Below, piece after piece: positions 561 through 21,341 of a stretch of 59,113 nt of DNA. This DNA is from Limisphaerales bacterium (GTDB lineage: Bacteria; Verrucomicrobiota; Verrucomicrobiia; Limisphaerales; UBA11358). The notes under the pieces are model-generated. The model did no database searches and had not been told where the DNA came from. It worked only from the letters and a program-made list of their open reading frames with translations. The DNA lies in assembly GCA_003134375.1 (NCBI GenBank), contig PLAY01000151.1, positions 1 through 59,113 of the forward strand. The letters run 5' to 3'. Positions within the stretch are counted from its first letter, which is position 1, and every line of letters starts with the position of its first letter. Both the position numbers and the translations under genes were made by a program.

Positions 561-1903
561 CTCCGCAACATCCCCGGCAGGCCGCCGCCCATCCTGGCCA
601 TCATCTTCTGGAACTTGCCCATCTTCTTCATCATCTGCTGCATCTGGCCGAACTTGTTCAGCATGGTGTTCAATTCCGTCACGCTCACGCCGCTGCCTTT
701 GGCGATGCGGATGCGGCGCTTGGCGTTCAGGATGGCGGGATTCAGGCGTTCCTTGGGCGTCATGCCGCAGATCATCGCCTCCATGTGCTTGAACTCCTTC
801 TCCTGCTTCGATAAATCGCCCTGCTGCTTCAACATCTCCGCGCCGCCGGGCAACATGCCGACGATGGATTCCAGCGAGCCGAGCTTTTTCATCTGGCGCA
901 ATTGCTCCAGAAAATCCTCCAGCGTGAACTGACCCTTGCGCATCTTTTCTTCCATGCGCTTCGCATCGTCCAGGTCCACGGCTTCGGCGGCCTTCTCGAC
1001 CAGGCTGACGACGTCGCCCATGCCGAGAATCCGCGACGCCATGCGTTCGGGATGAAACGGCTCGAACTCATCCAGCTTTTCACCCGTGCCGCCGAATTTG
1101 ATGGGCTTGCCGGTCACGGCCTTCAAACTCAACGCCGCGCCGCCGCGCGCGTCGCCGTCGAGCTTCGTCAAAATGGAACCGGTGATTTGCAGCGCCTGGT
1201 CAAAATGCGTGGCCACATTCACGGCTTCCTGGCCGGTGGCGGCGTCGAGCACGAGCAGGATTTCCGACGGCTTCACGAGGTCGCGCAACCGGACGAGTTC
1301 CTGCACCAGCGGTTCGTCAATTTGCAACCGGCCGGCGGTGTCGAAAATCAAAACATTGCGGCTGTTCGCTATGGCAAAGTCGAGGGCTTCGCGGGCGATT
1401 TTCAAAACATCCGTTTCGCCGCGTTTGACAAAGATGGGAATTTCAATCTGCTTGCCGAGCGTTTCCAATTGATCCATTGCCGCCGGGCGGTTTACGTCCG
1501 CCGCCACGAGCAACGGCTGGCGTCCCTGTTTTTGGAGCAGCCGCGCCAGTTTGCCGCTCGAGGTGGTTTTGCCCGAACCGTGCAAACCGACCATCAGGAT
1601 GCAACTGGGGCTGCCGCTGAGATTTAGCCCGGCGTTGGTCGAGCCGAGCAGGTCCACGAGTTCGTCGTAGATGATTTTGATGATTTGCTGGCCGGGCTGG
1701 ACGCTTTGGATGACTCCCGCGCCGATGGCTTTGGTTTTGACGCGCTCGATGAAATCGCGGGCGACCTTGAAATTCACGTCGGCTTCCAGCAGCGCCATGC
1801 GGACCTCGCGGAGGGAGTCGGTGACGTTGGCCTCGGAAATTTTTCCAAGCCCGCGCAGGTTGCGAAAGGCGTTCTGGAGTTTGCCGCTTAACGAATCGAA
1901 CAT
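557..1903 (-). CDS. ffh: Signal recognition particle protein Ffh
   Basis: NG domain with GLHGSGKTT, DTAGR and TKLDGDARGG motifs; Met-rich M domain. Confidence 0.98.
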   Translation of the reverse strand: MFDSLSGKLQNAFRNLRGLGKISEANVTDSLREVRMALLEADVNFKVARDFIERVKTKAIGAGVIQSVQPGQQIIKIIYDELVDLLGSTNAGLNLSGSPSCILMVGLHGSGKTTSSGKLARLLQKQGRQPLLVAADVNRPAAMDQLETLGKQIEIPIFVKRGETDVLKIAREALDFAIANSRNVLIFDTAGRLQIDEPLVQELVRLRDLVKPSEILLVLDAATGQEAVNVATHFDQALQITGSILTKLDGDARGGAALSLKAVTGKPIKFGGTGEKLDEFEPFHPERMASRILGMGDVVSLVEKAAEAVDLDDAKRMEEKMRKGQFTLEDFLEQLRQMKKLGSLESIVGMLPGGAEMLKQQGDLSKQEKEFKHMEAMICGMTPKERLNPAILNAKRRIRIAKGSGVSVTELNTMLNKFGQMQQMMKKMGKFQKMMARMGGGLPGMLRR

Positions 1904-1976: not shown

Positions 1977-2061
1977 GGTAGGTTACCCAAGTGGCCAACG
2001 GGGGCAGACTGTAAATCTGCTGGCTATGCCTTCGATGGTTCGAATCCATCACCTACCACCA
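1977..2061 (+). tRNA. tRNA-Tyr (GTA)
   Basis: Cloverleaf GGTAGGT...ACCTACC-ACCA, anticodon loop CTGTAAA, GTTCGAATC T-loop, long variable arm, encoded CCA. Confidence 0.98.
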
Positions 2062-2062: not shown

Positions 2063-2486
2063 TCTTTCTTTACGAATGGAAAGTGGATTTTAGACAAATA
2101 AATCAATTGTTTTAAGGGCATTGCTGTTTTCAACCTTTGCGTTTTGGTGCTTTTGCCGTCTCTTGCGTTCCCGTCCTGTTCGATGCGGATAAAGCAATCA
2201 TAAAGCAATCAATGTCCTAAAGCCGAAAACCGCCCCCGTTTCACCAAGCACACGCAAAACGCGCGTCCAGCGGAATCCAGCGCACGGCAAACGGCATCGT
2301 GGTGAATGTTCGGGTGAAGTTTCGGAATTTAAGGAATCCATTTTTTCGCGGGGGCGACCCGTCCCCGCCGAGTGCCGGGGGGAGGGGGATTTTGCAACCG
2401 TCATTCGTTTAGGAGTCCCGCGCTTTGAGCGAAGCCTGTTTTGAGGCAGGGCTGCTTGCTGCACGGTTTGACATCCGCCCGCGTCA

Positions 2487-2804
2487 TCAGCTTTTACTTT
2501 GGGCGATTAGTGACAGCACATCACTTTCGAGAAAACCACATGACCTTGTTCTCCCTGGCAGCTTTAACTTTTTCAGAATCCCGGACGCGGCAAGCTTATC
2601 CACCGTTCGGAGCGATACTGCCAAAAGACCGGCGACCTCGTCACGACGAATACAACGCTGGCGAACTACCGGCACGGCGTCTGGTTTTAGGGACTCGTCA
2701 TCGCCATTGCGGAGCATCGCCACGAGTCGGGCGCGCTTGGCAGGCGTGATTGTCGGATCGGCCTTCAATCCAGCTTTGAGCAGTTCAATTGTCGTGACAA
2801 GCAT
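2487..2804 (-). CDS. AlpA/excisionase-like HTH protein (paralogue of 11524-11844)
   Basis: IRRDEVAGLLAVSLRTVDKL HTH; aligns end to end with the 11524-11844 product. Confidence 0.8.
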   Translation of the reverse strand: MLVTTIELLKAGLKADPTITPAKRARLVAMLRNGDDESLKPDAVPVVRQRCIRRDEVAGLLAVSLRTVDKLAASGILKKLKLPGRTRSCGFLESDVLSLIAQSKS

Positions 2805-3965
2805 GGTTCAGTTTTAGAATGACTTTATGCAAACCAGCGACCGGGCAGGCGTTCCAGACACACGGGATTTCAAGCGCGGGTGACAGCATTGCCGAAAAGG
2901 AAAGTGTCCTGTCGAGGTGTCCGACTACATCCTGAATGTGATCCAATTGGCTCCGGTTGAACTCGCGGCACGCTGGCATTCGCATGGCATGAACCTACCG
3001 GTTTTGGATGAGGCACGCCCTACCCCTCGTCAAAACGAGGATTCTGCGTCCGCGCTATGGACGCGGTGAAGCTGCGATCTAACCGGCAAATGGCCGCGCC
3101 GATGTCCGTAGCCACGGGCAGTCCGTGCCCAGTCCGTGACCACAGCCGCGTCCGCAGTTTTTCCGTGGGCGCGCACACTCCATGACCCGGCACAATCCGT
3201 GTCCTTGAATAATCCGAAACCATGACCGCTGCCGCAGTCATGGATTGTCCGTGTTCAGTCCGCGTCCGCGTTCTCGCCGTGAACCAACCGTGTCCCGATT
3301 CTTGGACTGGCCGGAAAATGTCCGCGATACGGTGGAATTATTTCCTGTGTGATTTCCAGCCAACGGCTGCGACACTTCCCGCGTGAATCCTTAATCGCCC
3401 TCTGACTCCCGGCGAAGCGAGCATCGTCAAGGTGGAAGTCGCCGGGCATTACGGCGAAACTACCTTGACGACGCGCAGCGAGCCACACAATCGAAGGGCG
3501 ATTCACGCGGAGCCGGAGGTGAACCCGGCGCGGATGCGGACTGGACACGGATAGTTCGAGGTCACGGGCTGGATGCGGACATTCGCGGCCTGGCCACGGT
3601 CACGGACTGGACAAGACCACGGCCATCATGCCGGGCTATGGCGCGGATATTCCGCGTCCAAACCGCGACCGCTTCGCGGACGCTGAATCCTCGTTTTGAC
3701 GAGGAGTAAGGCTTGTCTGCGTAAAAAGCCTTCAAGTGAAGGCGGCAAATGGTGGCAAATGTGCGGTGGCAAAAGGCGACAAATTGCAACAAATTCGTTG
3801 TCGCCTTTTGCCGCAATTTGACACTGGTGCGGATGCGGCTCGATTCATTGGCCGAATGGTTAAGGGGATGGTGTCTTCCAAAAATTGCCCGCAGATAAGG
3901 GCAAGATAAACACGAGATATTCGCCTGAATGGGATGTTGGCGGATGCTCCGCTACTGTCACCGGG

Positions 3966-4150
3966 GCCGTGCGCGTGAATCAGAGGCGTGATGGTGCGTC
4001 GCCGGTCGTCGCGTCAATCTATTGCTCGCCTCATCCGGCTGTGCTCCAGATTGCACCCGCCGCCCGGCTCCGGGGTTTTTGCCTCTATGATTCTGCGCCC
4101 GGAGAATTGCTTTGCGAAGATGATGGCAAATTTACGGACGCGGCTTACGA
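3966..4150. repeat. Structured non-coding repeat, copy A
   Basis: Near-identical reverse-complement copy at 47434-47572; partial copies at 41920-42017 and 43605-43667. Confidence 0.9.
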
Positions 4151-4159
4151 ATAGGCACA

Positions 4160-4861
4160 TCATTTGTTTTCATCGTCTTTGCGGATAACCATAATTTTAT
4201 TCTGCGCAATCGCGTCCTCAAAAACCGCAGGATTCTCGGCGAGCGATTGTGTCGCATACTCCTTCTCTGCATTGTCCGCTATCATAAAAAACATCAAACC
4301 CCATAATGCTGACAAGGCAAAAAAGGTGTAATAGCTGTGAATCCCGAAACGAAACCAAGATACTATCAGACCGATGAGAAGGAAGGCTCCAATGGAGGGC
4401 TGCTTTTTCTGATTGTAGATGAGGCGAGCACCGATGCGCGTTGCAATGGCGGACACAACAATCCCACTCAGTAGCCACCAATCGTGCTCGTGCCACGCCC
4501 ACAAAGGAATAGCAAAAGCCGGGGCAACCATGTAAAGCAGAACCAAAATGCTAAAAATAGTCCGCCGCGCCCCTCTGATAAATTGGTATGGCTCACCGGA
4601 GATGCACTTAAATCCCATCGTTCCGCTCTGCACGCCGACAACAAAGTCGGCATGAGTGATGCCCTGATTGGCTTTTGCAACGTCGGCTTCCAACGCAGCC
4701 TGAAACTCCGGTGTCTTCGTCCTTTCCCATGCTGCCTTGGTCAATTCCTGCATTGGGTTGAAGCTCGCAGTGCAGTTCGGACACGAAACAACGGTATTGA
4801 AGACCTCACCTGCTACCTCGAAGGTTGTCCTGCAACGTGGACAAGTGGCTTTTTGGTTCAT
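4160..4861 (-). CDS. Zn-ribbon plus multi-pass membrane hypothetical protein
   Basis: CPRC...CPNC followed by about four hydrophobic segments; start placed at MNQKATC to avoid overlap with the upstream gene. Confidence 0.75.
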   Translation of the reverse strand: MNQKATCPRCRTTFEVAGEVFNTVVSCPNCTASFNPMQELTKAAWERTKTPEFQAALEADVAKANQGITHADFVVGVQSGTMGFKCISGEPYQFIRGARRTIFSILVLLYMVAPAFAIPLWAWHEHDWWLLSGIVVSAIATRIGARLIYNQKKQPSIGAFLLIGLIVSWFRFGIHSYYTFFALSALWGLMFFMIADNAEKEYATQSLAENPAVFEDAIAQNKIMVIRKDDENK

Positions 4862-4874
4862 AGCTTTTATACCA

Positions 4875-5231
4875 TCAGTTCTCCGGGTTGCCGGGTGGTG
4901 GGACAAATTTTTGCGGACGATTGGTTTTGCCATCGCGTGACCACGCGGGTTTAACGACAATCACCCAAACCATGCCGGTTACGGCGGCAAGTGCCAACCA
5001 TTCGACCAAAAGTGTTTTCAAATCAATTTCAATGCTCCACGCGCCGCCTTTGGTATCCGGTGGAGAAAGAATAAATTCGTGACCTGCTGGCGTTCTCTGG
5101 TGAGCATGATACGGAACGTCCAAGACATTCAGCCACGGCGGAAAAAGGCAGGTCAAGATGAACATGGCAAGTGCCGTTAAGCAAAGGATGCGCGCCCGAT
5201 TTGGCCGTTGGTTTGATTCCGTGGAGATCAT
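4875..5231 (-). CDS. Small membrane hypothetical protein
   Basis: Two hydrophobic segments; same strand and spacing as neighbouring cargo genes. Confidence 0.65.
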   Translation of the reverse strand: MISTESNQRPNRARILCLTALAMFILTCLFPPWLNVLDVPYHAHQRTPAGHEFILSPPDTKGGAWSIEIDLKTLLVEWLALAAVTGMVWVIVVKPAWSRDGKTNRPQKFVPPPGNPEN

Positions 5232-5240
5232 GTCACCGTT

Positions 5241-5477
5241 TTAATGTGATTGAACTGGAACGCAACTGTTCAGATAAACACAAAGCAGGATCATCGCTGC
5301 CAATCCAATGCAAAGATATTTGTAAATGTCCCGCGCTTGTTCCGCCTTATCGCGCTCTTTGACCAACTTGGAAATTTCGCGTTGATGAAATTCGTATGCC
5401 TCCTCCGCCACCCAGACTCCGCCAATCATAGCGCGCCGGTTTGTTGGCTCGTCGGCATGATTTGGTGGCGTGTTCAT
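5241..5477 (-). CDS. Small hypothetical protein with C-terminal TM helix
   Basis: ATG overlaps the stop of 5474-6019 (ATGA); coiled segment then hydrophobic helix. Confidence 0.55.
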   Translation of the reverse strand: MNTPPNHADEPTNRRAMIGGVWVAEEAYEFHQREISKLVKERDKAEQARDIYKYLCIGLAAMILLCVYLNSCVPVQSH

Positions 5478-6019
5478 TCCGGTTGGGACGGTTGATGTTG
5501 GGTTTCGTCCTCCGTCGGTAAAAGCAAGTCGGGTTGAATTTCCCTGATCCATTGCTTGAAGTCATCCCGATAATACTCTGGATGTCGCCGAATTTCTTGG
5601 ACGTTATTTGGATTCAAAATTATCCGCACCCACGATTTCTCCAGCTCGTTTTTCTCTTTCTCCAGCTTGTTTTGTTCTTTGGCATAAGCAGCAACCAAGA
5701 ACCAAAAAAACACTCCAAACAGAATCAGGAAAAAACCACTACCGGAGTCGCGCAAGACCTCGATGCAAAACCCTTGATGTCTTATGGTTTCAGCAAGATG
5801 GATCGCTGAAAGGCCGATGAACAAACCGAGTCCAGCACCCGCAAACATCAAATTGATGATTAGAAGATTGTCGCTATTACCGGCTAGGAAAAACAGAAGC
5901 ACGGCGACTGCTGCAAGAATGATGAAGTCGTTGCCTGTGCTACAGGCTGCGAGCATGAGTGCGGCCAGCCCAACAAACTTAATAAACTTAACTGCGAGGG
6001 CGGAATTTTTAGTTTTCAT
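5474..6019 (-). CDS. Membrane hypothetical protein
   Basis: Three to four hydrophobic segments and a charged coiled-coil tail. Confidence 0.7.
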   Translation of the reverse strand: MKTKNSALAVKFIKFVGLAALMLAACSTGNDFIILAAVAVLLFFLAGNSDNLLIINLMFAGAGLGLFIGLSAIHLAETIRHQGFCIEVLRDSGSGFFLILFGVFFWFLVAAYAKEQNKLEKEKNELEKSWVRIILNPNNVQEIRRHPEYYRDDFKQWIREIQPDLLLPTEDETQHQPSQPE

Positions 6020-6084
6020 GGACTTGTCTTCCCTTGTGAGAATTGGCCGCGCAGAAAAATAGGCGTAGTTTCAAATGCTGCCTG

Positions 6085-7029
6085 TCACCACACAAAGCCG
6101 GTTTGTGTGCGGGGTTTATTTTGAAAATGAGAAAGAAAGAAACAGCGGCGGACAAGGAGTGCGGGAATACCAACGGCCAGCAACCCAAAAACCGATGGTT
6201 CAGGAATCTCGATGGCCAGTCCAACCGGGTTATCCAACCCAGAGGCGTAGGTGCTTTGTGCTCCGCCCGGCGTCAATTCGATGATGTTATTGGCACCCCC
6301 ATTCGCCACAAACAGGTTGCCCGCGCCGTTAAAGACCAGCCCATTAGGAGCGGACAACCCGGAGGCGAAGGTGCTTTCCACTCCGCCCGGCGTGATTTCA
6401 GTAACGCCACCGCCACCGGGCACTCCGTTGTCTTCATCCGCTACAAACAGATTGCCTGCGCTGTCAAAGGCTAGTCCCCAAGGAACCGCCAACCCGGAGG
6501 CAAATGTGCTTTGAACTCCGCTTGGTGTGAATTCATAGATATTGCCACTGTGCATATCTGCCTCATACAAGTCACCCGCGCTGTTAAAAGCCAATCCAGC
6601 AGGATCAACCAACCCGGAGGCAAAGGTTGCCCGCACTCCGCCCGGTGTGATTACAATGATGTTATTGGCACCCCCATTCGCCACAAACAGGTTGCCCGCG
6701 CTGTCAAAGGCCAGCCCATAAGGAACATTAAACCCGGAGGCAAAGGTGCTTTTGACTCCCCCCGACGTGATTTCATAGATGTTGCCACTCTGGGAATCCG
6801 CCACAAACAAATCACCCATACTGTTAAAGGCCAGCCCTTCAGGACCACCCAAACCGGAGGCAAAAATGCTTTGCACGCCGCCCGGCGTCAATTCGATGAT
6901 GTTGTTGGCGCTACCGTTATTCGCCACAAACAGATTTTGAGCCTGTGCGCTGGAGGCAATCAGCAGGACTGCTCCCGCACAAACCGCTCCGGTGAATGAA
7001 TGACACACTATTCGATTGTTTATTTTCAT
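6085..7029 (-). CDS. Secreted NHL-repeat beta-propeller protein with PEP-CTERM sorting signal
   Basis: Signal peptide, about six FASGL..P.GLAF(N/D)..G.LFVA repeats, C-terminal IPEPSVFGLLAVGIPALLVRR. Confidence 0.9.
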   Translation of the reverse strand: MKINNRIVCHSFTGAVCAGAVLLIASSAQAQNLFVANNGSANNIIELTPGGVQSIFASGLGGPEGLAFNSMGDLFVADSQSGNIYEITSGGVKSTFASGFNVPYGLAFDSAGNLFVANGGANNIIVITPGGVRATFASGLVDPAGLAFNSAGDLYEADMHSGNIYEFTPSGVQSTFASGLAVPWGLAFDSAGNLFVADEDNGVPGGGGVTEITPGGVESTFASGLSAPNGLVFNGAGNLFVANGGANNIIELTPGGAQSTYASGLDNPVGLAIEIPEPSVFGLLAVGIPALLVRRCFFLSHFQNKPRTQTGFVW

Positions 7030-7323
7030 AGTCGTAGTTCTTTCGCCACGTGTCCCCGCCTGCCACCAAAGAAAATGGGCGTGACCTACTCACGCTCCCT
7101 CACAGGCACAGGAATGCCCTCAAAAGAACGCTTTCAGACACGCCCGAGGGGGCGTGCCTTCAAACGCTGTCTTTTGAGTCGAAATTTCCTGTTTCGTGAG
7201 TGACAGCAGCCGAAGCCGCAAATTTTATTGTTTTGGTTTGTTCGCTACATTCGTTTTTTTGAACCGCTGATGATTCAAGCAAATGGCGGTGGTCAAAGCA
7301 AGAATTGCTGGCGGGCGGGCAGA

Positions 7324-7470
7324 CTGGTGGAGGGCATCCTCGCGGCCAAGCGCACCGGCAACGCTGCCACGGTGGCGGCGTTGGAATCAGAAATAGACGC
7401 GCATGTTTTCCGCCTCTATGCCCTCACCCCCGCCGAAATCGCCCTGGTCAAATCCACCACCGTCAAATGA
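7324..7470 (+). pseudogene. C-terminal remnant of a Type IIG/Eco57I-like restriction-modification protein
   Basis: LVEGILAAKR...ALESEIDAHVFRLYALTPAEIALV matches the typical C-terminus of these enzymes; no upstream body; abrupt rise in GC. Confidence 0.7.
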
Positions 7471-7479
7471 AGGTGTATC

Positions 7480-8115
7480 TTAATTTGCAAGTTTGGCGAC
7501 GTTTGGGTGCGGCCAAAGTTCTGATTTTCTGATGCGGGTCTGCATTGCTTGCCGTGAAACGCCAAAATGACCATGCAGCGCCCGGCAGCAGAAATCTAAA
7601 ACTTCTTCTTTCCCCTGATTGAAAAAACCTTCCCGTTCCGCATCGGCAACGGCTTCGGCCAATGCGGTCGAAAGTTCTTTTGTGGGCATCAAAAACCGTC
7701 CGGCAAATTCGTCCGCCTGCCATTCAATCCAGTTATATTCGGCCACCGGAATTGCATTGATAAACGCAATCCACTGTTTGATCGTTCCAAATTTAACTGC
7801 CCCATAAATGTCTTTATGAAGAAACAGGTGAGCCAATTCATGGGCGGCAGAAAATCGCAGCCTGGGTTGCAGGGAAGGCTCTTTGAAAACCATGCCGTCA
7901 AACCAAATGCCGGTCAAATCAGGGCGAAGGAAAGCATCCTGTTTAAGTTGATGGATGGGAGCAAAATCAAATTCCAACCCCAAATCAAATTCCGCAAATC
8001 CCAAAACATCTATGGGAATTTTTTGTGCAGATTTATATTGCCCACGAATTTGAGCCGCACTGACCTCGATTTCCTCTTTTGAGAGATAGGGCGCTTTGAA
8101 TTTGGCCGGATTCAC
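7480..8115 (-). CDS. ImmA/IrrE-family metallopeptidase
   Basis: RLRFSAAHELAH (HExxH) and EWQADEFAGRFLMP motifs. Confidence 0.9.
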   Translation of the reverse strand: MNPAKFKAPYLSKEEIEVSAAQIRGQYKSAQKIPIDVLGFAEFDLGLEFDFAPIHQLKQDAFLRPDLTGIWFDGMVFKEPSLQPRLRFSAAHELAHLFLHKDIYGAVKFGTIKQWIAFINAIPVAEYNWIEWQADEFAGRFLMPTKELSTALAEAVADAEREGFFNQGKEEVLDFCCRALHGHFGVSRQAMQTRIRKSELWPHPNVAKLAN

Positions 8116-8122
8116 GTCGCCC

Positions 8123-8482
8123 TTATGAGTTTTTCAGGATTTCTGCCAGTTTTTCCAAATCTTTAGTGGTGGGTTTTTTGCCGGTTGCCGTTCGGAAAAA
8201 GACCGGCAGGCGTTTTACCAATTCGGCATCATTCATCACATATTGAGGAATTTTCCCCGCGTCAATCGCCGCATAGTCGAAAATCAATTCGCGTTCTTTG
8301 GAGTCTTCAGACAGGCCGAGGATGACGGCAATCCGGTTGAGAAGCCTCTGATCTTGAGGGGGTGGCAGGACGCCGCGCTCGATTTTGCTCCAATTGCTGG
8401 GGTCGCAATCAGTAGCGATGCAAAATTCGCGCAATCCCAAACGCCGTTCCGCCCGCAGTTTTTTTAGAAATTTGCCGAACAT
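8123..8482 (-). CDS. XRE-family HTH transcriptional regulator
   Basis: MFGKFLKKLRAERRLGLREFC...PSNWSKIERG; directly upstream of the peptidase gene. Confidence 0.9.
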   Translation of the reverse strand: MFGKFLKKLRAERRLGLREFCIATDCDPSNWSKIERGVLPPPQDQRLLNRIAVILGLSEDSKERELIFDYAAIDAGKIPQYVMNDAELVKRLPVFFRTATGKKPTTKDLEKLAEILKNS

Positions 8483-8492
8483 AATCTTGCCT

Positions 8493-8530
8493 GTGTGGTA
8501 GAAAAATACCACACGGCCAAGTGATGTCAA
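8493..8530 (-). promoter_or_regulatory. Promoter with overlapping palindromic operator for the xre-immA operon
   Basis: Minus-strand TTGACA (8525-8530), 16 bp, TG-n-TATTTT (8503-8508); perfect inverted repeat GTGTGGTA-N6-TACCACAC at 8493-8514. Confidence 0.75.
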
Positions 8531-8804
8531 TGGTTTTATTCACGCCCGCACCAAACACCCGTCACGCGAGCCATGTAAATTTCGGTTTTGACACCGGCAT
8601 TTATCCGCTTTGATTCGTGCAAGTTCCCGCTAACTTTCCGTTAGCATTGTGCAACCTGAAACTTGCACGAACGATGCCCGTAATTTACCTACCGTCTGCG
8701 CCGTAAATGCTGACCGCGAACCAAGCAAACTGACCGCTCACATGGCTCGCGCACGTAGAGCGAGGAAAAGAGAGTGTTTCCGCGCACGCGCACGGGCACG
8801 TGAG

Positions 8805-9053
8805 TCATGTATCCGTGGCATCTGATTTTGTCAGCCACGCGATGTAGCGGTCACATTGCCGCCATTCGATGTTGAATCGCTGACGGACTGCCCGGTGGAT
8901 TTCTGTCTTGGTTGCGCCCGCGTCAAGCAACCGGGCGACGCAGCCGATGCGCTCGTCAATCTGCTGGCGCGTGGCTTTGACGTAGGGCTTGCGTTGGCCG
9001 GGGCGGATCACAGGTTGTTTTCTTGTGTCAGGCATGATGTTCATTGCCGCCAA
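8805..9053 (-). CDS. Small HTH-like hypothetical protein
   Basis: 82 aa, helical pattern LLDAGATKTEIHRAVRQRFNIEWRQCDRYI; follows the primase-helicase gene. Confidence 0.65.
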   Translation of the reverse strand: MAAMNIMPDTRKQPVIRPGQRKPYVKATRQQIDERIGCVARLLDAGATKTEIHRAVRQRFNIEWRQCDRYIAWLTKSDATDT

Positions 9054-9062
9054 TTCCGGCCA

Positions 9063-9154
9063 GCGTCACCTTACACGCCCTGATATAGGGGCGTGACGGT
9101 GTGACGGTAACGCCGTCGTGACGGTGATTTGACGCTGGTTTGACGGTTGACGGT
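9063..9154. repeat. Iteron-like TGACGGT repeats with palindrome (candidate origin)
   Basis: TGACGGT at 9094, 9102, 9119, 9141 and 9148, a variant at 9130, an inverted CGTCACC near 9064, and hairpin CACGCCC-N8-GGGCGTG. Confidence 0.6.
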
Positions 9155-9163
9155 GGTTTCATG

Positions 9164-11143
9164 TTAAGCGGTTAAAACGTATAATCCGGCAAGGTCTTTT
9201 TTTACAATTCCAAGCGCAAGCATTGTGGTCACTCTGCGCTCGGCTGTTTTACCTTTTACGGCCAATTTGGTTTTGACGGCAGTTTCCAATTCAAACCGCC
9301 GCATTGCTGGCCTGTCCGAAAAAATGGCGCGGGCAAGCTCTGTCAGTTCTTCCCGCTCTTTATCCACCTTTGCGCCGTTGATGTTTTGCACGCTGACGTG
9401 CATCTGATGTTGCTCGCTCCATGCGAATCTGGGCGCGGTATTTTTCGGAATAGGGGCGTCCCGGTTTTTTTCTGCCCACATGACGCTGACTCCGTTGGTG
9501 TCCTTTTCCAGCTTTAGGTTGGTCTCTGACTTGCGCTCTAAATACGAACCAAGATGCCCGCGAGTTTTGTCAGGACTGCCGGGGTTTAGATGGATGATGT
9601 TTAAGATCGGACAATCAAACTCCATCGTTATGCTTTCGAGTTCGGAAATGATGCCGTTGCACTCTGGAATATCATTTACGTTATGCACTGTGTCGCCTGT
9701 GCCGTCTATGATGATGGAGTGAACACCGCCGAATTGATTTGCGGCTTGTTCTGTCAGCAACCGGATTGATTTGCGGATTTCGTCAACAGAGAATCCCTTT
9801 AGGTAATACGAGCGCAACCATTCCGGCGCGGCGGCAACCTGGGCGCGGCGTATCAATCGCTGTATTCCATTCCAATGGCGAAACTGGCATTGCTCGGTGT
9901 CAAGATGGACAACCGCGAAGCCGTTTGGATTTTGAGAGGTGAAGCCAAAGCAATCGGCGTCAGGCGTGGCAAACGTGCTGGCGATGACGGCGTTTAGTGC
10001 GGCTGTTTTCCCGCCTTTGGCCTGCGCGGAAAAGGTAGTCAGGTTTTGGGAATAGCAAATCGGCGTGCCGTTTAGGAAAAATCGCGGCGGCTGTTCAATC
10101 GGTGTGACTGTTGGCGAATAAATCCGCGTTGTGAGCCGTTCAATCAAACTTGGTTGCGCGGCCTCGGTTGCGCCCGGCGCGTCATCATTGCCCGGCAATG
10201 GGTCTTGCGCGGCCTGCGGTTGGACCAGTTTCGCGGCGGCAATCGCGGCCTCAAAATCTGCCTTCGTTGCACCGGCTCGCGAGAAGTCGTTTGCGTCCTT
10301 GTGTGGAAATGGCGTCGCTACGTTATAGACCTTGCAACCGGCGCTGCTGGCGATCTCGGCAAGCCAAGTATCACCAGCCGGAATTTTCTGGCCGGGTTTC
10401 AATGCGTCATTTTGCTTGAAGGCGTAGCAAACAGCGTCCGGCTCAATCTGTCCGCAAATCAATTCGCCATTGCCCGCGCCGCGTGTGATGAAAACGGCGG
10501 TGTCTGGCAAACCGCTGGCCGTGTGCCAGCCGAGTTTGTCCATGACCGCAAAGGCGTCATATTGCGATTCAAAAGTCAGAACGTAACCAGCGGCTTTTGT
10601 GTCGCCAAAAACCAGCGGCGCGGTGCTGTGTCCCGTCGGCTTAAAAATCCATTTGCCATTCGCCAGCCGGACGTGAGCGGAAACAACCTTGCCGTCGTCA
10701 CCATGATTTGCGAACGCGGTCAGGCCGTCGCAAATTCCAACGATGCCTTGTGCGTAAAGCCAGCGGACAAATTCAATGGACAAGCCACGCCCTGCCACCA
10801 GCTTTTGCGCGTCTGTTTCCGTGAACGCGGCAACGCATTTTTGCCAGTCGAAGTTTTCGCCGGTCGCTTCAATTCGCGGCTTCGCTGGTTTCGTGGCGAT
10901 GGCCGGGCGCGATGGCATAGGTGAAAGCCGACTGCCCGCCAGTTTGAAAATCTCCTGGCGGTGTTCGCTGTCGCCGGGATTCGTCGCGCAACCGAATTTT
11001 CCGCCAGGTTGAATCAATAGATGATCGCCGGACTTGTCAGAGCCAACCGCACGGCAGGCAGGACAAGCTGCACGGACGCCACCGCCATCGAGGTGTTTAA
11101 CATTTTCCAGCCTTGCCGTATCAAGTGAGATTTCACCGGCCAT
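9164..11143 (-). CDS. Primase-helicase (Zn-binding N-terminus, Toprim-like centre, AAA/RepA-type helicase)
   Basis: CPAC...HL...GC N-terminus; FESQYDA and KDAND Toprim-like motifs; Walker A AQAKGGKT; Walker B SIIIDG; RGHLGS motif. Confidence 0.85.
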   Translation of the reverse strand: MAGEISLDTARLENVKHLDGGGVRAACPACRAVGSDKSGDHLLIQPGGKFGCATNPGDSEHRQEIFKLAGSRLSPMPSRPAIATKPAKPRIEATGENFDWQKCVAAFTETDAQKLVAGRGLSIEFVRWLYAQGIVGICDGLTAFANHGDDGKVVSAHVRLANGKWIFKPTGHSTAPLVFGDTKAAGYVLTFESQYDAFAVMDKLGWHTASGLPDTAVFITRGAGNGELICGQIEPDAVCYAFKQNDALKPGQKIPAGDTWLAEIASSAGCKVYNVATPFPHKDANDFSRAGATKADFEAAIAAAKLVQPQAAQDPLPGNDDAPGATEAAQPSLIERLTTRIYSPTVTPIEQPPRFFLNGTPICYSQNLTTFSAQAKGGKTAALNAVIASTFATPDADCFGFTSQNPNGFAVVHLDTEQCQFRHWNGIQRLIRRAQVAAAPEWLRSYYLKGFSVDEIRKSIRLLTEQAANQFGGVHSIIIDGTGDTVHNVNDIPECNGIISELESITMEFDCPILNIIHLNPGSPDKTRGHLGSYLERKSETNLKLEKDTNGVSVMWAEKNRDAPIPKNTAPRFAWSEQHQMHVSVQNINGAKVDKEREELTELARAIFSDRPAMRRFELETAVKTKLAVKGKTAERRVTTMLALGIVKKDLAGLYVLTA

Positions 11144-11281
11144 AATCCAACCTTTCTGCCAGCGTGCGCCGCAAGCGTGCCGACAATGCGCGTTTGGATT
11201 GATGAAGTCCGCCACGCACAATTCGTTCAATTTCGCGGACGGTGGACAGGGAAACGCCCTTGGGTTTGCGGGGGCGGTTTT

Positions 11282-11527
11282 TCATACGCCATCCTTTTCC
11301 TCCCCGGACTGGGCACGAGGCCGCCGATACGTTAAAAAATTTGTTTTGACCCACTCTGTCCCTTCAGCCACCGGCACACGAACTGCCCGTTCTGACAGTT
11401 TCAGAAACGGCAGGCCGCGTGAAAGCCATGTGCTAACCGTCCGTGGTGATACACTGAACCGCGCCGCGAATTGGCGTTTGGAGTCCGCCGCCCTGTCAAT
11501 TGGGGCGTCTTCGTCGAAGTCTGTCAT
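11282..11527 (-). CDS. Excisionase-like HTH protein
   Basis: SKRQFAARFSVSPRTVSTWLSRGLPFLKL...VRVP; ATG coupled to the upstream stop (ATGA). Confidence 0.7.
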   Translation of the reverse strand: MTDFDEDAPIDRAADSKRQFAARFSVSPRTVSTWLSRGLPFLKLSERAVRVPVAEGTEWVKTNFLTYRRPRAQSGEEKDGV

Positions 11528-11844
11528 ACAATGCCTCCATGTTGATCCCCGGCCAAAATTAGCGCGTTGACATCGCCTTCCAGGAATCCGGAGGCACGTT
11601 GTCGGCCCGGTAGTTTGACCTTCTTGATCGGGAGTTTGTCCACCGTTCGCAAACTGCATGACAATCGGCGGGCGACTTCGGCGCGGCGAAGCAATCGCGG
11701 CGGGTTGTCTGGTGGCGGGGAGTCAGGTTTGCGTGGCGTGACGCCGTTACGCAGGACGGCCATGAGCCGGGTGCGGTCGGCGGGGGTCAAGGACGGGTCG
11801 GATTCCAACCCGCTACGAACGATTTTTATTGTTGTTGCCAGCAT
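11524..11844 (-). CDS. AlpA/excisionase-like HTH protein
   Basis: LLRRAEVARRLSCSLRTVDKL; paralogue of 2487-2804. Confidence 0.8.
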   Translation of the reverse strand: MLATTIKIVRSGLESDPSLTPADRTRLMAVLRNGVTPRKPDSPPPDNPPRLLRRAEVARRLSCSLRTVDKLPIKKVKLPGRQRASGFLEGDVNALILAGDQHGGIV

Positions 11845-12016
11845 AAATTTCTTTTGCTGGCTGAAATTACCACTGGTTTTGTGGATAATTAGGATGGGTG
11901 AGGAAATTTGAACCGCAGCGGCAGGTTTGAACACCGCAGCGAAAGAAAAAATCACCGCAGAGGTGGTTTAGAACACCCCAAAAAGTAAAAAACAATTTGA
12001 CGGGAAATAGCGCGGG

Positions 12017-13045
12017 CTACTTCTGGCGTTTGCCTGCGGCTAACGGACTTGAAGCGGCACTCTTGGGAAGTTTTGTCTTTGGCGCTTTTGGTTTGTCTCC
12101 GGTCTTTTTAGCTTCTCTTGCAATGGCTCGATTCTGTTGATCCTGTGAATTTTTTTTGAACCGTTCCCAACGCATGGTGCATAGGTCTTGAAGCGAAATC
12201 CGGTTGTTTTTCAGGCAGTCATCAATTGCATCCTGATTGCTTTGCTGCCATTCCTGATAGCTCCTCGGCCTTCCACTCCCCAATTGAATCAGCATCCCCG
12301 CTTTGGCAAGCCTGTCTTGCTGCTCCTGTTCACGCTCGTATTGCTCTTGGCTTATGCGGGGCGTGCGTTCGTCCAAGAAATGCTTCACGGCTGCCCTGAT
12401 CGCCGGCACGGACAATGGTTGCTCGCCGATTTCTTGTTCGGGTCTGCCTTTCCTTTTTGGTGCAATAGGTGGCAACAGTGGCAGTTGCCCGGAAGTTTTT
12501 TTATTGCTCACTTCAATCTCCGCGAATGTGACCGTGCTAAATGCTGTATCGAAATCGGCAATGAAAGATTCTGTTCCTTCCTTTTTTTCAGGCAACGTCC
12601 CGATGTATCGCTCTGCGGCCATTAGCAATTCGTGTGCGTTGTGAATCGCTTCGCCCGGAGTCAACTTTGCGTTTGTTTTCACCAGTGGTGCTGCTATCGC
12701 GGCCAAAATTTCTGGCTTCACGTTATCGGCAAACAGCATTTCCGGCACTTCCGGTGCGCGGAAGTTCTCCGCCGACAAGTCCACATCCACAGACACCGGC
12801 AAATGCGCTCCATCAGTTTTCTCAGCACACAAACGATTCCAGTCACCCGCCTTTTCAACGGCCTTTTGCAACTGCCAGTGAGCGTGCTGGGCTACAAAAA
12901 ATTCAACGCCTCGCAATATCCGTCCTGCGATGCGGGGCTGAATTGTCCGCAGCCAGTATTCTTTCGCCAGTCGCAACTCTTTTTCAACCGCCGCTCGTTT
13001 TTCTGTGATGTCGGTTTGAGCAGGAATTTCGGGATTCTGATTCAT
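12017..13045 (-). CDS. Hypothetical protein downstream of the integrase
   Basis: 342-aa ORF in operon position between int and alpA; no recognisable motif. Confidence 0.8.
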   Translation of the reverse strand: MNQNPEIPAQTDITEKRAAVEKELRLAKEYWLRTIQPRIAGRILRGVEFFVAQHAHWQLQKAVEKAGDWNRLCAEKTDGAHLPVSVDVDLSAENFRAPEVPEMLFADNVKPEILAAIAAPLVKTNAKLTPGEAIHNAHELLMAAERYIGTLPEKKEGTESFIADFDTAFSTVTFAEIEVSNKKTSGQLPLLPPIAPKRKGRPEQEIGEQPLSVPAIRAAVKHFLDERTPRISQEQYEREQEQQDRLAKAGMLIQLGSGRPRSYQEWQQSNQDAIDDCLKNNRISLQDLCTMRWERFKKNSQDQQNRAIAREAKKTGDKPKAPKTKLPKSAASSPLAAGKRQK

Positions 13046-13060
13046 GGTTGCTCCGTTTGG

Positions 13061-14392
13061 TTATTCAGCGGCGAGTATTGCCAACGCCGCAGACTTTTTT
13101 TCGCGCCAATTTTTTGCCGACATATTTTTAAGAATAGTTTGCACGTCGCGCAAGATTTCGTCTTGCCCGCGTTTTGTCGGCTCTGCCGTGGCTTCGCTCA
13201 TCACGGACGGCAACAAGGCCACGGCGCGGCCAGCGGCTAATTCGCCGACGTGCGTATAATGCCGAGTCATGGCCGGGCTGCTGTGTCCCACGATAGATTC
13301 CACGACCGACAACGGCGCATTGCTTTCGCGGCAGAGTGAAACGAACGTGTGCCGCAACGAATGAAAGCCGACTTCGATGACGGCGCGTTTACCATCCGTG
13401 CCGGTGCCGGGCTTGTGCAAGGTGATTCCGCACGCTTTGAAATGCCTTTGAACCATGTCCGTTACCATGTCTGTCCGGTGAACATAAAGCGCGGCCATTT
13501 CCGGCAGGACGTATTCACGGCGTTGATCCGGCGGCGTCACCGCCAGCATATCGCGCAATATCGGATGGATTGGCACAATGACAGGTTTGGGATTGCGGCG
13601 CGCGGTTTTGTTGGGGATGCGACGAATCATTGCACGCGGCAAATCCACTTCGCCCCAGCGCAGCGTGGCGCAATCGCCAAGCCGCAAACCGGAGTAGATG
13701 CCGAGTGCCAGCAACGTCTGCAACTCGCCCGTGGCGGTCTGGCAGATTTTTCGTAGCTCATCAATCGTCAGTTCGCGGCGGCTGTTTGTGATCATCCGCT
13801 TGCGCTGAATGTTTCCACCGCGTTTCGGTGATTCCCACGGATTGCCGGTGAGCTTGGCTTTATGCTTCACGACGCGGAAAACGAGCGTGAGCAAATTCAA
13901 ATGCTTGTTGTAGGTGGACGGGCTGAATCGGCCATGATTCATGCTACTGGCGTATTCCTCGGCGATTTCTTTTGTCACGTCGCGCAGCGTCAGCACGTCG
14001 GCGTGCTTTTCCTTCATCCAATCGGCGAACGCCTGCCATTGAAATTCGTATTGGCGGAGGGTGGACTTGCCGCTGTCCGGGCGATTGGGCGAGGCGAGAA
14101 ATTCGCTCCATGCCTGCCCGATGGACAATGGCGGGTGTTGTTCATCTTCCCACTTGGCAAGCTCGGCCTTGCGGCCTCCCAGCTTGCCGGCGATGGATTC
14201 CAGCGCGTCGGCTTCATTGCCAGCGGCGAAGGGAGCCATCAATTTGTCTTTGGCTTTGATCGCGTCTCGTTCCGTGGTGATCGAATTGCCGTTTTCATCG
14301 CGTAGCACTTTGAGAAATGCCTTGCCCTTGAATCGCCAATTCACATAGAAGTTGTCTCCGCGTTTGAGTAGATGTCCTGTCGTTTTTTTCAT
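13061..14392 (-). CDS. Tyrosine recombinase/integrase of element 1
   Basis: GLRLGD, HSLRH, VGH and TRHY catalytic motifs; basic beta-rich arm-binding-type N-terminus; adjacent to attR. Confidence 0.96.
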   Translation of the reverse strand: MKKTTGHLLKRGDNFYVNWRFKGKAFLKVLRDENGNSITTERDAIKAKDKLMAPFAAGNEADALESIAGKLGGRKAELAKWEDEQHPPLSIGQAWSEFLASPNRPDSGKSTLRQYEFQWQAFADWMKEKHADVLTLRDVTKEIAEEYASSMNHGRFSPSTYNKHLNLLTLVFRVVKHKAKLTGNPWESPKRGGNIQRKRMITNSRRELTIDELRKICQTATGELQTLLALGIYSGLRLGDCATLRWGEVDLPRAMIRRIPNKTARRNPKPVIVPIHPILRDMLAVTPPDQRREYVLPEMAALYVHRTDMVTDMVQRHFKACGITLHKPGTGTDGKRAVIEVGFHSLRHTFVSLCRESNAPLSVVESIVGHSSPAMTRHYTHVGELAAGRAVALLPSVMSEATAEPTKRGQDEILRDVQTILKNMSAKNWREKKSAALAILAAE

Positions 14393-14509
14393 AGTGCGCT
14401 CGCTTTCTTGTTTATTCCGCTGCGTGCGCCTATTTCATCAAAACAATGCAAGTATGTCAATCAAAAAGCAATCAGATATATTTTATAACCTTTAATGTCA
14501 TATAATAAA

Positions 14510-14568
14510 GCAGACTGTAAATCTGCTGGCTATGCCTTCGATGGTTCGAATCCATCACCTACCACCAC
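14510..14568 (+). repeat. attR core of element 1
   Basis: 59-bp exact duplicate of 2004-2062. Confidence 0.95.
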
Positions 14569-14700
14569 CCCTTTTTTCACAGGAGAAAATGGTATTTTTA
14601 GCAATGTTTTCAATGGTTTTCACTGTATCGCTGTTTTTGAACCTCTGCGTTTTGGTGCTTTTGCCGTCTCTTGCGTTCCTTTCCATTAAACCTCAAAAAG

Positions 14701-14994
14701 TCATACAACGCCCAAAAGCTGGAATTGGTCCCAAGCACGCGGTAAACGCGCGTCCTGCGTAGCGCTGCCCCAAGTCATTGAAGCCGCCTTGTGAACGGTT
14801 TGCTTACTGCCTCTCAAATCAATGACAACACCCGGCAGTTTATCAAATGCGTGCCAATAAAGGCCATGCCACTTGTCGGTGAGCCAGCGAGCAAATAAAG
14901 GCCAGAGCATTGAATCGCGATCCACCCAATCGAATCCGCCGAGTGAATAGTCCAAGCCAGCGAGGGTCGGTTTAATCTTTGCTTTTTTGGCCAT
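14701..14994 (-). CDS. Hypothetical protein
   Basis: 97-aa Trp-rich ORF with a plausible start. Confidence 0.5.
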   Translation of the reverse strand: MAKKAKIKPTLAGLDYSLGGFDWVDRDSMLWPLFARWLTDKWHGLYWHAFDKLPGVVIDLRGSKQTVHKAASMTWGSATQDARLPRAWDQFQLLGVV

Positions 14995-15273
14995 AACTCA
15001 AAGCAGGAGCGGGTTCAGGCCGATTGATGGGCTGGACATCACATATTTGGCTTCAATCCACCTCTGAAACTCCATCCAGACGCATTCGTAATGTCACCGG
15101 TCACTTCAAAACCGACCACCCCGAGGTGTTTAATTAATATCAGATTTCTTGTTGCAAGCAAGGGGCTTTTCAATTTCTGCACATCGGTTCCCTCGCAAGT
15201 GCCGCAGAGACGATGCCAACAAAAGGCAATGCGACCTAAACAGTTTTGACGCGGCCAATTGTCACGTTGCGAA

Positions 15274-16674: not shown

Positions 16675-17426
16675 GCAGGCGATTGTATCTTCTTTTGATA
16701 GAACTTCAAGCCCACTGCAATTGGGCTTTGCAGCAGCGGCAGAAGCACGCGAGTAACCGTTTTCAGTTGGAGCATCTCCCACGCCTGTTCTCTGTGTTCC
16801 GTCGCCTTCAACCGGGGTCAGAGGGCGGACCTGCGCCTCGTTTTCCGGCAGGAGCCGAATGTCTCCAATTGGAGATAAATCCCTTGCGACAACCAGGCCC
16901 GTCATAGGCGGGTTATGCTTGCCAAGCCGTTGCCCGGGGTAAAGGCCGGTGAGAACCAAGCCGCGTCATTCGCCACCGGCTTCGTCGCAACGCTTCAAAA
17001 CCCGGCCAACTTCGGCTGGGGGTGAAGCCACGCCGCTTGTTTTCGCCGCGTTGGTTCAAAGTCGTGGCAGCGGGCTACGGCTCGGCAAGCCAGCACTTTC
17101 GATTGCCGATTTACGATTGGGCGGCCGGTGAACTCAAGCTTCAAATGAAATCCAAGGTGAAGGATGAAGTAAAAAAGAAAGAGGCCGGACACTACTCCGG
17201 CCTCTCAATGAGAACTAAGCGCTTAAATCAACGATTCGCAGTTGCGCGACCACGAACTTTTTGTTGGCTGCGGCACCGCAGATTTGCGCCTTGCTTCACA
17301 CACGGAACACTGCGTTTCTGCATGCCAACGATGGGATTAGAATACCAGAGGACATGTCCCCTGCTAGTCACCAGTTCTGGTTACGTGCAAACCCCTTGAA
17401 AACAAAGGGAAATTGACGAAATCCGG

Positions 17427-18053: not shown

Positions 18054-18064
18054 GGCGTTGATTT

Positions 18065-21091: not shown

Positions 21092-21341
21092 ATTTGATTG
21101 TTCGAATGATGCGAACCGGATGCAAGGATGTTTGAAAAACAATACGAACCCAATACTGAAGATGGAAATTATTTTTCCAAAATCACTTGCCAGACCGCCG
21201 CGATGGGTTAGGTTTGCCCTGCCCGATGAGAACTGGGCGTGTGGCGGGTGTGGGCGATATTAAATCGTGTGTGATTGCCCCGCCCGCCCGTTTTTTTGCC
21301 CCGCCTTCGGGAGGAGGATTCGCCCCCTCGGTCGTCATGAC

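Follow-up and report, generated by a model that had tools for sequence, protein, structure and literature searches.

A strand-specific, rod-shaped hairpin repeat of integrative islands in Limisphaerales as a candidate single-strand initiation signal

Introduction

As a general kind, structured cis elements that are specific for one strand of conjugative or rolling-circle DNA are already known. Single-strand origins (sso) are orientation-specific, are defined more by structure than by sequence and are present in integrative and conjugative elements (ICEs) (PMC4595007), and hairpins of the Frpo and single-strand initiation (ssi) type prime and transcribe on transferred single-stranded DNA (ssDNA) (PMC9849209, PMC11541004). 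Here we describe a rod-shaped hairpin repeat of ~145–150 nt, denoted the unit, in the 59,113-nt contig PLAY01000151.1 of a Limisphaerales bacterium (Verrucomicrobiota; assembly GCA_003134375.1), the full length of which is referred to as the window. The unit-sense strand is the strand read 5′ to 3′ in the copy denoted A. The unit most likely acts either as folded ssDNA, where it would be a priming signal, or as a cis-acting RNA. We favour, with a probability of roughly 40%, a strand-specific initiation signal of the ssi/sso kind that would work as folded ssDNA on the strand nicked and displaced by a TrwC relaxase. To our knowledge, conversion of the single strand to duplex in ICEs and mobilizable elements has been described only for a few Firmicutes and enterobacterial models, and for none from the Verrucomicrobiota. 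For this dominant, poorly cultured phylum of soil and peat, the unit offers a sharply defined candidate of ~147 nt, for which the comparative data are unusually clean and whose clear strand assignment makes the choice between RNA and ssDNA directly testable by an orientation swap.

The closest described counterparts are the sso of rolling-circle plasmids and of ICEBs1 (sso1). Like them, the unit is non-coding, falls into the range of ~130–300 nt, folds extensively when single-stranded, is defined by structure more than by sequence and, judged by its pattern of selection, is specific for one strand (PMC4595007); its carriers, like theirs, would go through an ssDNA stage. The sso of the pBAA1/ICEBs1 type consist of three stem-loops, whereas the unit is one long rod in a Verrucomicrobiota host; it has no BLASTN match among the 72,556 plasmid records of PLSDB (‘distant’ mode), and no CS-6 or RSB motifs were identified in it. 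A further sso-like feature is the modular exchange of the unit between otherwise unrelated replicons, which the literature on ssoA and ssoU reportedly also describes for sso.

The Frpo/ssi elements of the F and ColIb-P9 leading regions resemble the unit in being multi-copy, leading-region hairpins of relaxase-mobilised elements (PMC11541004, PMC9849209). Common to both are a −35-like TTGAC in the stem, a mismatched loop in the place of the −10, and methylase and toxin–antitoxin genes nearby. STAXI (RF01728) is likewise a conserved structure beside integrase, anti-restriction and DNA-handling genes, for which the question of RNA or ssDNA arises in the same way (PMC2864571); STAXI is a tandem pseudoknot of the Enterobacteriales, whereas the unit is a single rod without a match to it in cmscan. 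The unit is set apart by a single 41-bp rod whose loops are conserved, its occurrence in relaxase-bearing, relaxase-less and primase-bearing islands alike, and its precise site at the junction of backbone and cargo.

Results and Discussion

The unit folds into a conserved rod

The two full copies of the window are copy A at 3963–4109 (plus strand) in island 1 and copy D at 47430–47575 (minus strand) in island 2. They score 155.5 and 151.5 bits, respectively, with the covariance model R1 (145 positions, 41 pairs), and the fold of D has a z-score of −4.2. The copies are ~92% identical over the unit (117 nt at 92% in one comparison, 144 nt at 91.7% by BLASTN). They differ by a 1-nt indel, which the original prediction, made from the letters of the window, had stated. 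The stems that it described are present too, namely GAATCAGAGGC/GCCTC-TA-TGATTC, GCCGG/CCGGC and an inner stem in which the CAATCT/AGATTG of A is replaced in D by CAATGT/ACATTG, both sides having changed in a compensatory manner from C-G to G-C. Its end at 4150 was set too far: the structured unit stops at ~4109, and the sequence up to 4126 is matched solely by a 3′ half copy at 43604–43667. That the unit is non-coding was borne out. Overlapping open reading frames (ORFs), such as the one at 3885–4154, are unconserved, and the 1-nt indels between copies break every reading frame; a coding gene was accordingly rejected.

In copy A the rod comprises 41 bp and is interrupted. Its outer stem is CCGTGCGCG.GAATC/GATTC.GCGC, its conserved internal loops read GATnnTnnG and CCGGGnnTTTTGC, and its interior consists of a middle stem with conserved pyrimidine–pyrimidine mismatches, the inner stem GTCAA/TTGAC and a variable tip. 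In the consensus, the base of the rod is formed by CCGTGCGCG / CGCGCACGG; sequence is conserved in the loops (5′ ..ATtgTaTG.. and 3′ ..CCgGGnnTTTtGC..) and in part of the tip.

The original prediction had regarded one covarying pair from two copies as suggestive only, which was appropriate, and had pointed to a covariance model as a check; covariation proved strong in larger alignments. In an alignment of 46 copies, 89.6% of the cells at paired positions are standard pairs and double changes occur at 28 of the 41 pairs. None of 500 shuffles matched the observed covariation, and partners slid out of register paired in only 32–43% of the cells. A second alignment of 98 copies, drawn from a species-representative collection and overlapping in part with the first set, gave 90.1% paired cells and double changes at 20 of the 41 pairs; over both alignments the slid controls paired in 30–45%. 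Covariation is seen in every helix, for instance GCGCGTGAATC/GATTCTGCGC versus GCGCGCCAATCC/GGATTTGGCGCG versus GCGCGGAAGCC/GGCTTCCGGCGC in one and CCGGTCGGCG/CGCCGCCCGG versus CTGGTTGGTG/CACCAACCAG in another. The inner stem occurs as AATCT/AGATT, AATGT/ACATT, AAGGT/ACCTT and AAGAT/ATCTT. The five base pairs of the GTCAA/TTGAC duplex, by contrast with these variants, are invariant in both alignments, which suggests that this duplex is recognised in a sequence-specific manner. With these alignments the rod is secure, its support being far beyond chance. A local hairpin within the 5′ arm (GAATC..GATTC) was considered and rejected, its register being inconsistent and free of covariation.

One strand is selected to pair

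Wobble cells of the type G-T/T-G outnumber those of the type A-C/C-A by 153:42 in the 46-copy alignment and by 361:45 in the 98-copy alignment (binomial p<1e-15), while the corresponding transitions in unpaired columns are balanced (168 versus 188). This asymmetry, together with the balance in the loops, indicates selection for pairing of the unit-sense strand and not a mutational skew. One-strand selection in turn excludes mechanisms confined to duplex DNA (operators, symmetric cruciforms and terminal inverted repeats, for example), as well as every model that has the antisense strand fold. Covariation and strand asymmetry thus back the earlier proposal of a family-conserved, non-coding cis element that acts as a folded single strand.

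The family is confined to mobile elements of one clade

BLASTN yielded 14 matches on 11 contigs of this 201-contig genome, and the R1 model 16 copies. Within the genus, R1 found units in 33 of 61 genomes, with a patchy distribution and 1–16 copies per genome. When 185,579 species genomes were scanned with a pattern, more than 113 contigs matched, almost all of them from metagenome-assembled genomes (MAGs) of the Verrucomicrobiota/Verrucomicrobiia/Limisphaerales from peat, bog and soil; three of the results were chance pattern matches. A sample of 300 other Verrucomicrobiota genomes (149 genera) contained no unit. Full units were also present on contigs L119, L139, L150, L179 and L107, which belong to MAGs labelled Bifidobacteriaceae, Candidatus Aquilonibacter and Acidobacteria; these are either mis-binned Verrucomicrobiota contigs or the result of element transfer across phyla.

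A cmscan against Rfam 15 returned only tRNAs at the gathering thresholds and nothing relevant over 3850–4250 at E<=10, and INPHARED phage records gave no BLASTN match to the unit. Together with the PLSDB search, these comparisons indicate a sequence and structure family without precedent in Rfam, in the plasmid and phage databases or in the literature searched.

For a survey of genomic context, 51 loci were oriented, up to 10 kb on each side was taken (<=10 kb) and the ORFs were clustered. In 47 of the 51 loci an integrase, a relaxase or a recurrent backbone family lies within 10 kb. Integrases are present in 32 loci, and 12 encode a protein of 900–990 aa with a TrwC relaxase and an AAA_30 helicase domain (MOBF; PF08751, 1.2e-81). 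The search across the Verrucomicrobiota that had been advised at the outset has thus revealed a family far larger than two copies, with hundreds of members outside this genome, which is linked to mobile elements and not randomly scattered.

The unit has a fixed polarity to TrwC relaxases

Among the 61 genomes, 30 have both the unit and a TrwC relaxase (PF08751), three only the unit, seven only the relaxase and 21 neither (Fisher p=1.6e-7). Unit and relaxase gene lie on the same contig less than 16 kb apart in 30 pairs, in which the relaxases are 40–100% identical. The unit is on the strand opposite to the relaxase in 29 of these pairs and co-oriented in one; 23 pairs are divergent, the 5′ end of the relaxase gene facing the unit at 0.9–15.7 kb, and six are convergent. 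Since such pairs are not phylogenetically independent, the p-values are upper bounds on significance. The unit typically follows a small helix-turn-helix (HTH) gene, or an operon for HTH, P-loop and membrane proteins, that is divergent from the relaxase gene, and so stands at the start of the predicted leading region. TrwB/TraD-type coupling proteins adjoin four relaxases in this genome and attest the presence of conjugative machinery; VirD4/VirB4-type conjugation genes (PF02534, PF03135) were not found in it.

Relaxase genes are typically transferred last (PMC11541004). Combined with the opposite-strand polarity, this rule would make the unit-sense strand the transferred strand, in agreement with the independent analysis of the wobble pairs.

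The same data bear on a role of the unit as an oriT, as a site of relaxase recognition or termination, or as the oriT mimic of the original prediction, which would allow relaxase-less islands to be mobilised in trans. The 30 of 33 unit-positive genomes that carry a relaxase, two elements in which the unit precedes a divergent relaxase gene by 0.9 kb, and the presence of the unit in islands with and without a relaxase are all consistent with such a role. Against it, a relaxase that is 87% identical occurs in genome G003 with the same HTH gene and the same intergenic inverted repeat upstream, but with no unit, homology ending ~150 nt before its place. The unit is absent from seven relaxase-positive genomes, and the distance between unit and relaxase varies from 0.9 to >15 kb. 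The similarity of the unit to the relaxase-proximal intergenic region is no better than chance. This region, of 180 nt between the relaxase and HTH genes, is conserved in L066 (G050:C12, oriented 8960–9170), L093, L098, L075, L086 and G003 and has CCTTGC-GAG-TGCAAGG and TTGCG-N10-CGCAA as inverted repeats. From this region, and not from the unit, comes a 42-nt stretch that recurs in the relaxase-less locus L091, where it is inverted and lies 1.2 kb upstream of the unit. The intergenic region is a better oriT candidate than the unit, for which we consider this role very unlikely. A point in favour of the role is that the ATTGT of the 5′ loop may resemble the IncW nick region.

A putative signal for complementary-strand initiation

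The preferred reading, an initiation signal on the transferred strand, can be put as follows. The unit is carried by relaxase-bearing integrative elements and by relaxase-less islands alike. The element would become single-stranded after it has entered by conjugation, or while its excised circle replicates in the rolling-circle or strand-displacement mode, and the unit-sense strand would then fold into the 41-bp rod. A polymerase or primase may recognise the GTCAA/TTGAC duplex together with the two conserved internal loops, and would make a primer there for synthesis of the complementary strand, an ssi/sso role in the wider sense of Frpo. The active form would thus be DNA rather than RNA and its activity priming. 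In addition, the unit may serve as a dispersed 145-bp homology patch at which elements swap cargo.

Several findings weigh against this reading. With RNA parameters, the antisense strand is predicted to be slightly more stable than the sense strand for 83 of 95 copies, and with DNA parameters for 95 of 95; the folds of the two strands are otherwise equivalent, so free energy does not identify the functional strand. A U-G pair is kept in 79 of 97 copies, and tolerance of G-U pairs is a classic RNA signature that fits RNA at least as well as ssDNA. The polarity between unit and relaxase could simply reflect conserved synteny and co-oriented genes. The closely related relaxase module of G003 implies that the unit is dispensable or replaceable, and for the 39 of the 51 loci without a relaxase within 10 kb, passage through ssDNA is an assumption. 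Sense RNA that originates in the 148-aa gene upstream runs into copy D (contig 47544–48121, read-1 adapter at 48121), and such RNA must also exist at the eight loci where a backbone gene ends 31–32 nt upstream of the unit. Finally, the hexamer 16–18 nt past the TTGAC of the folding strand is (G)A(G)TTT-like, its key A not being conserved; such a poor −10 does not support Frpo-style recognition by RNA polymerase.

Transcription across the unit and the case for RNA

The RNA data consist of unstranded Logan contigs from peat metatranscriptomes, with thin coverage and with direction read from adapter remnants; two controls on known genes behave like dUTP-stranded libraries. The contigs break at the repeat boundary, and therefore transcript starts and ends are unreadable and only the adapter orientation is usable. 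Copy A, overlapped by RNA contigs 3864–4271 and 4008–4700, lies under minus-sense and hence antisense RNA, which represents the 3′ untranslated region (UTR) of the convergent gene for a zinc-ribbon/membrane protein of 266 aa (4160–4960, minus strand); all three informative junctions agree (3/3). On the methylase side of copy D, RNA contigs cover 46900–47448. Sense transcription is not a consistent property of intact copies.

These data bear on the possibility that the unit is a cis-acting RNA, that is, a structured intercistronic or 3′-UTR element of backbone operons that run away from the relaxase. It could possibly act as a determinant of processing or stability, as a protein-binding site or as a transcription insulator between backbone and cargo. 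The covariation with its abundant G-U intermediates and conserved U-G pair, the co-transcription of copy D in sense and the occurrence of the unit in metatranscriptome contigs are all expected of such an element. The same can be said of its fixed spacing of 31–32 nt from the stop codon of the preceding backbone gene, seen in eight loci (in others the unit follows an HTH gene), and of a conserved 3′ extension of 20–60 nt that is followed by start codons in D and L071. Copy A, however, is among the best conserved copies, and yet it lies in the 3′ UTR of a convergent gene with antisense RNA only, as does the diverged unit at 3370–3516 described below. Genes flanking the unit show little preference for one direction on either side, and no Rfam family matches. 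A sigma-70 scan, which accepts spacers of 16–18 nt, found nothing inside the unit, and no promoter or terminator is associated with it. In o54-type elements a sigma-70-like cargo promoter, TTGACT-17-CAGAAT (or CACAAT), lies 60–90 nt downstream of the unit; it was located at 1416–1444 (minus strand) of L023 (G000:C54), where an ORF of 93 aa and a gene for a HepT-like toxin come after it, and has homologues in o100, L091, L073, L084 and L067. The rod shows no recognisable RNA tertiary motif or stabilising tetraloop, and invariant Watson–Crick pairs within a helix are unusual for RNA. Weighing both sides, we regard a role as RNA as the main alternative, only somewhat less probable than the initiation signal.

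A single-strand promoter of the Frpo type would drive early expression of cargo (methylase, PIN, HepT and YhcG-type genes) from the incoming strand. In reverse complement, the 5′ arm gives TTGACG-N15-TA(T/C)AAT, with invariant −10 positions 2, 5 and 6; cargo of the same classes has been reported from the leading regions of plasmids (PMC11541004), and the unit, like Frpo, is multi-copy. This promoter would, however, require the antisense strand to fold, whereas selection acts on the sense strand (361:45), and by the relaxase polarity the antisense strand is not the transferred one. The good −10 is on the other strand, and its spacer of 15 nt falls outside the range of 16–18 nt accepted in the scan. 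In the unit, unlike Frpo, the folding strand is the coding strand and not the template of the downstream cargo genes; it cannot act in the manner of Frpo for these genes and could at most prime or transcribe back towards oriT. No PLSDB plasmid resembles the unit. The chance that it is such a promoter is therefore slight.

Modular exchange at the unit

The initiation signal favoured above would at the same time be a patch of shared sequence, and boundaries of homology were analysed in 557 locus pairs whose shared homology includes the unit. Homology is confined to the unit (within ~20–60 nt) in 80% of the pairs on the left and in 86% on the right. In many pairs with 2–4 kb of common upstream backbone, it stops between −34 and +20 nt from the 3′ end of the unit, which agrees with the earlier placement of the unit at the backbone/cargo junction. 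Subfamilies have conserved flanks beyond the unit, and an extension of 20–60 nt on its 3′ side is conserved. The unit, being common to unrelated islands, suggests that short structured modules can mediate cargo exchange, and its covariance model is a practical marker that finds the TrwC-type islands of the clade and pinpoints the junction. The cargo at the junction is of defence and toxin type (methylase, PIN, HepT, YhcG nuclease, RHS).

In island 2, three units on the same strand, copy D and two partial ones, divide the cargo. The 5′ partial unit (41917–41997, minus strand; 27.8 bits) extends from the 5′ end through the apical loop, and its homology with D runs on into the upstream flank of D. 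The 3′ partial unit (43604–43667, minus strand; 19.3 bits) begins at the CCCGGC of the 3′ arm and has ~30 further bases in common with the downstream flank of copy A (4098–4126). The two halves leave ~18 nt between them unaccounted for, which does not correspond to a single precise crossover. Truncated copies elsewhere break at varied internal points. From the sequences, such truncations would fit homologous or illegitimate recombination at a dispersed palindromic patch, and not one defined crossover.

An RNA contig from run X32 (window 4063–4265, 3 mismatches) fuses the upstream flank of the 3′ half copy of the 43.6-kb type to sequence past copy A, up to 4265. It stems from another strain with a different mosaic of the same pieces.

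A site-specific recombination site of the attC kind, used by the island integrases for cargo capture, had been suggested in the original prediction. Like attC, the unit is an imperfect one-strand hairpin with mismatches and a variable tip at a cargo boundary, homology breakpoints cluster at its ends, and three same-strand copies partition the cargo of island 2. The high identity between copies recalls the repeats of chromosomal integrons, for example those of Vibrio. However, the integrase of island 1 scores 39.2 bits with the integron integrase profile TIGR02249 (cut-off 265) and that of island 2 does not match it, and the integrases associated with units are diverse (25–30% identical). The base of the rod has no R″ (RYYYAAC) or R′ (GTTRRRY) boxes. 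In contrast to attC, there is no IntI, no attI/Pc platform and no array of ORF–attC cassettes: units are dispersed over elements at different tRNA genes, and island 2 alone has three same-strand copies, two of which are truncated at non-matching points, with ~18 nt lost between them and with varied truncation points elsewhere. A function as an attC-like site consequently seems hardly probable.

The sharp boundaries also recall miniature inverted-repeat transposable elements (MITEs) of the ERIC and Correia type, and the unit could be a selfish palindrome of this kind with no function for its carriers. It shares with them its size of ~150 bp, the imperfect palindrome, the multiple copies and the sharply bounded homology (unit-confined in 80–86% of locus pairs), and its distribution across the genus is patchy. 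It differs from them in the strand-specific selection, the strand-asymmetric wobbles being unexpected for double-stranded terminal inverted repeats, and in its 1–16 copies per genome. No target-site duplications are visible around the units, and no empty-site pair was found. Moreover, 47 of 51 copies lie in mobile-element contexts, in place of a scatter over core intergenic DNA, and there are subfamilies with conserved flanks beyond the unit and a fixed polarity to relaxases. The MITE-like origin is the least credible of the explanations considered, and no match to a known MITE or repetitive extragenic palindrome emerged.

Exchange and initiation could also be two sides of one device. In this speculative and rather improbable extension of the initiation signal, the unit would represent a so far unrecognised class of portable ‘establishment module’, a strand-specific ssDNA hairpin that recruits the host priming or transcription machinery to the transferred strand and at the same time provides a common recombination anchor, at which unrelated elements exchange cargo across a defined junction. 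If true, it would be a counterpart of integron attC logic in the world of relaxases, serving conjugative, mobilizable and replicative islands without a dedicated recombinase.

Architecture of the islands in the window

Island 1 (~12.5 kb) begins at a tRNA-Tyr gene (1977–2061, plus strand), the 3′ part of which is directly repeated at 14510–14597, and encodes a tyrosine integrase at 13061–14392 (minus strand; Pfam Phage_integrase, 2.4e-17). Island 2 (~14.6 kb) has a tRNA-Leu(gag) gene at its integrase-side end (35563–35647, plus strand; direct repeat at 50262–50309) and a tyrosine integrase at 35638–37068 (plus strand; Pfam Phage_integrase and SAM-like domain) that is 82% identical to a unit-adjacent integrase in L078. 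In both islands the integrase lies at one end and the unit 2–3 kb from the opposite end, on the strand opposite to the integrase, so that the relative orientation is the same, as had been predicted. Their backbone proteins have no mutual BLASTP matches, in line with the view that two otherwise unrelated tRNA-integrated elements have the unit in common. In island 2, a 148-aa gene (47594–48040, minus strand) runs in the direction of the unit and ends 21 nt upstream of D; past D, in unit sense, the cargo starts with a gene for an N6/N4 DNA methylase of 714 aa (45191–47335, minus strand; Pfam N6_N4_Mtase, 5.4e-26).

Island 1 contains, in addition to copy A, a diverged unit of a second subfamily at 3370–3516 (minus strand), which was not among the features of the original prediction. 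It scores 27.2 bits with R1 (E=3e-4) over the full model and has a minimum free energy of −75.7 kcal/mol (z-score −5.4). The diverged unit retains GCGTGAATC, GATTGTGTG, GTCAAGGT/ACCTTGAC and CCGGGAGT, while its middle helix is rewritten in a compensatory manner. It points away from copy A across 447 nt, and inverted second units upstream are also found in loci L100 and L073. A plus-sense, hence antisense, transcript (3431–3613) overlaps it. This transcript has a depth of 45 in one metatranscriptome and of 12 in another.

The divergent pair places one hairpin on each strand, flanks a gene-poor, repeat-rich stretch and shares the island with a gene for a primase/helicase-like protein of 688 aa (9164–11230, minus strand; PHROG 239 DNA primase/helicase, 3.7e-9). 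Homologues of this protein (FAM20) are encoded in three other unit loci, and the gene suggests that island 1 replicates autonomously. Sequence searches of the PDB gave no match for the 688-aa protein or for the P-loop backbone protein. In the oriV of RSF1010 (IncQ), ssiA and ssiB are strand-specific hairpins on opposite strands that are served by an element-encoded primase and helicase. The pair 3370–3516 (minus)/3963–4109 (plus) with its primase/helicase-like gene resembles this arrangement and fits priming signals at an origin. The ssi of RSF1010, however, are ~40 nt long and adjacent, whereas the hairpins here measure ~147 nt, lie 0.4–2.8 kb apart and are mostly single, and the origin is putative.

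Other carriers of the unit and minor observations

A fully delimited element of 18 kb in G050:C12 is bounded by 38-bp direct repeats at a tRNA-Lys gene and has the order integrase, excisionase-like gene, relaxase, small HTH gene, unit and cargo. It occupies oriented positions 3791–21884 of an 80-kb reconstruction, with the integrase beside the 5′ end of the tRNA; its 38-bp repeat matches the 5′ half of tRNA-Lys(ttt) and not the usual 3′ end. In a second architecture the unit lies 31–32 nt past the three-gene operon (HTH, P-loop and membrane protein) divergent from the relaxase, and in a third it comes after a FAM4-FAM3-FAM2 operon, and 2–6 kb further on there are an HTH gene and an integrase. 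The cargo downstream includes DNA methylases, PIN proteins, HepT-like toxins, YhcG/DUF1016 nucleases and large surface or RHS proteins.

An IS110 bridge RNA was considered as well and rejected: an IS110-like transposase abuts one weak unit-like match (C36), but there is no general association with units. At G000:C36, 21.5–47 kb, a relaxase-bearing element contains this weak unit-like sequence (43985–44123) together with an RHS/YD-repeat protein of 2082 aa, an integrase and the IS110-like transposase. At 49.8–70.6 kb there follow another relaxase with a coupling protein of the TrwB type and a series of large genes on the minus strand, which may be a mating-pore cluster.

Within the window, 35654–35825 and 50377–50548 form a 172-nt inverted repeat (85% complementary). 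Its first arm belongs to the integrase gene of island 2, of which it forms the 5′ end, and its second arm adjoins tRNA-Leu(tag) (50553–50636); the repeat appears to be left over from a related element that had integrated at this second tRNA-Leu. In island 1, the gene-poor stretch 2100–3960 spans 2 kb without a credible ORF and contains an inverted repeat at 3011–3067/3662–3718. The cargo of this island includes an NHL-repeat beta-propeller gene (6085–7029, minus strand) with tandem repeats of 120-nt period at 6180–6914. At 7480–8530, finally, island 1 encodes an M78 peptidase of the IrrE/ImmA type and an XRE-type HTH repressor, a pair that is the kind of switch governing induction in phages and ICEs.

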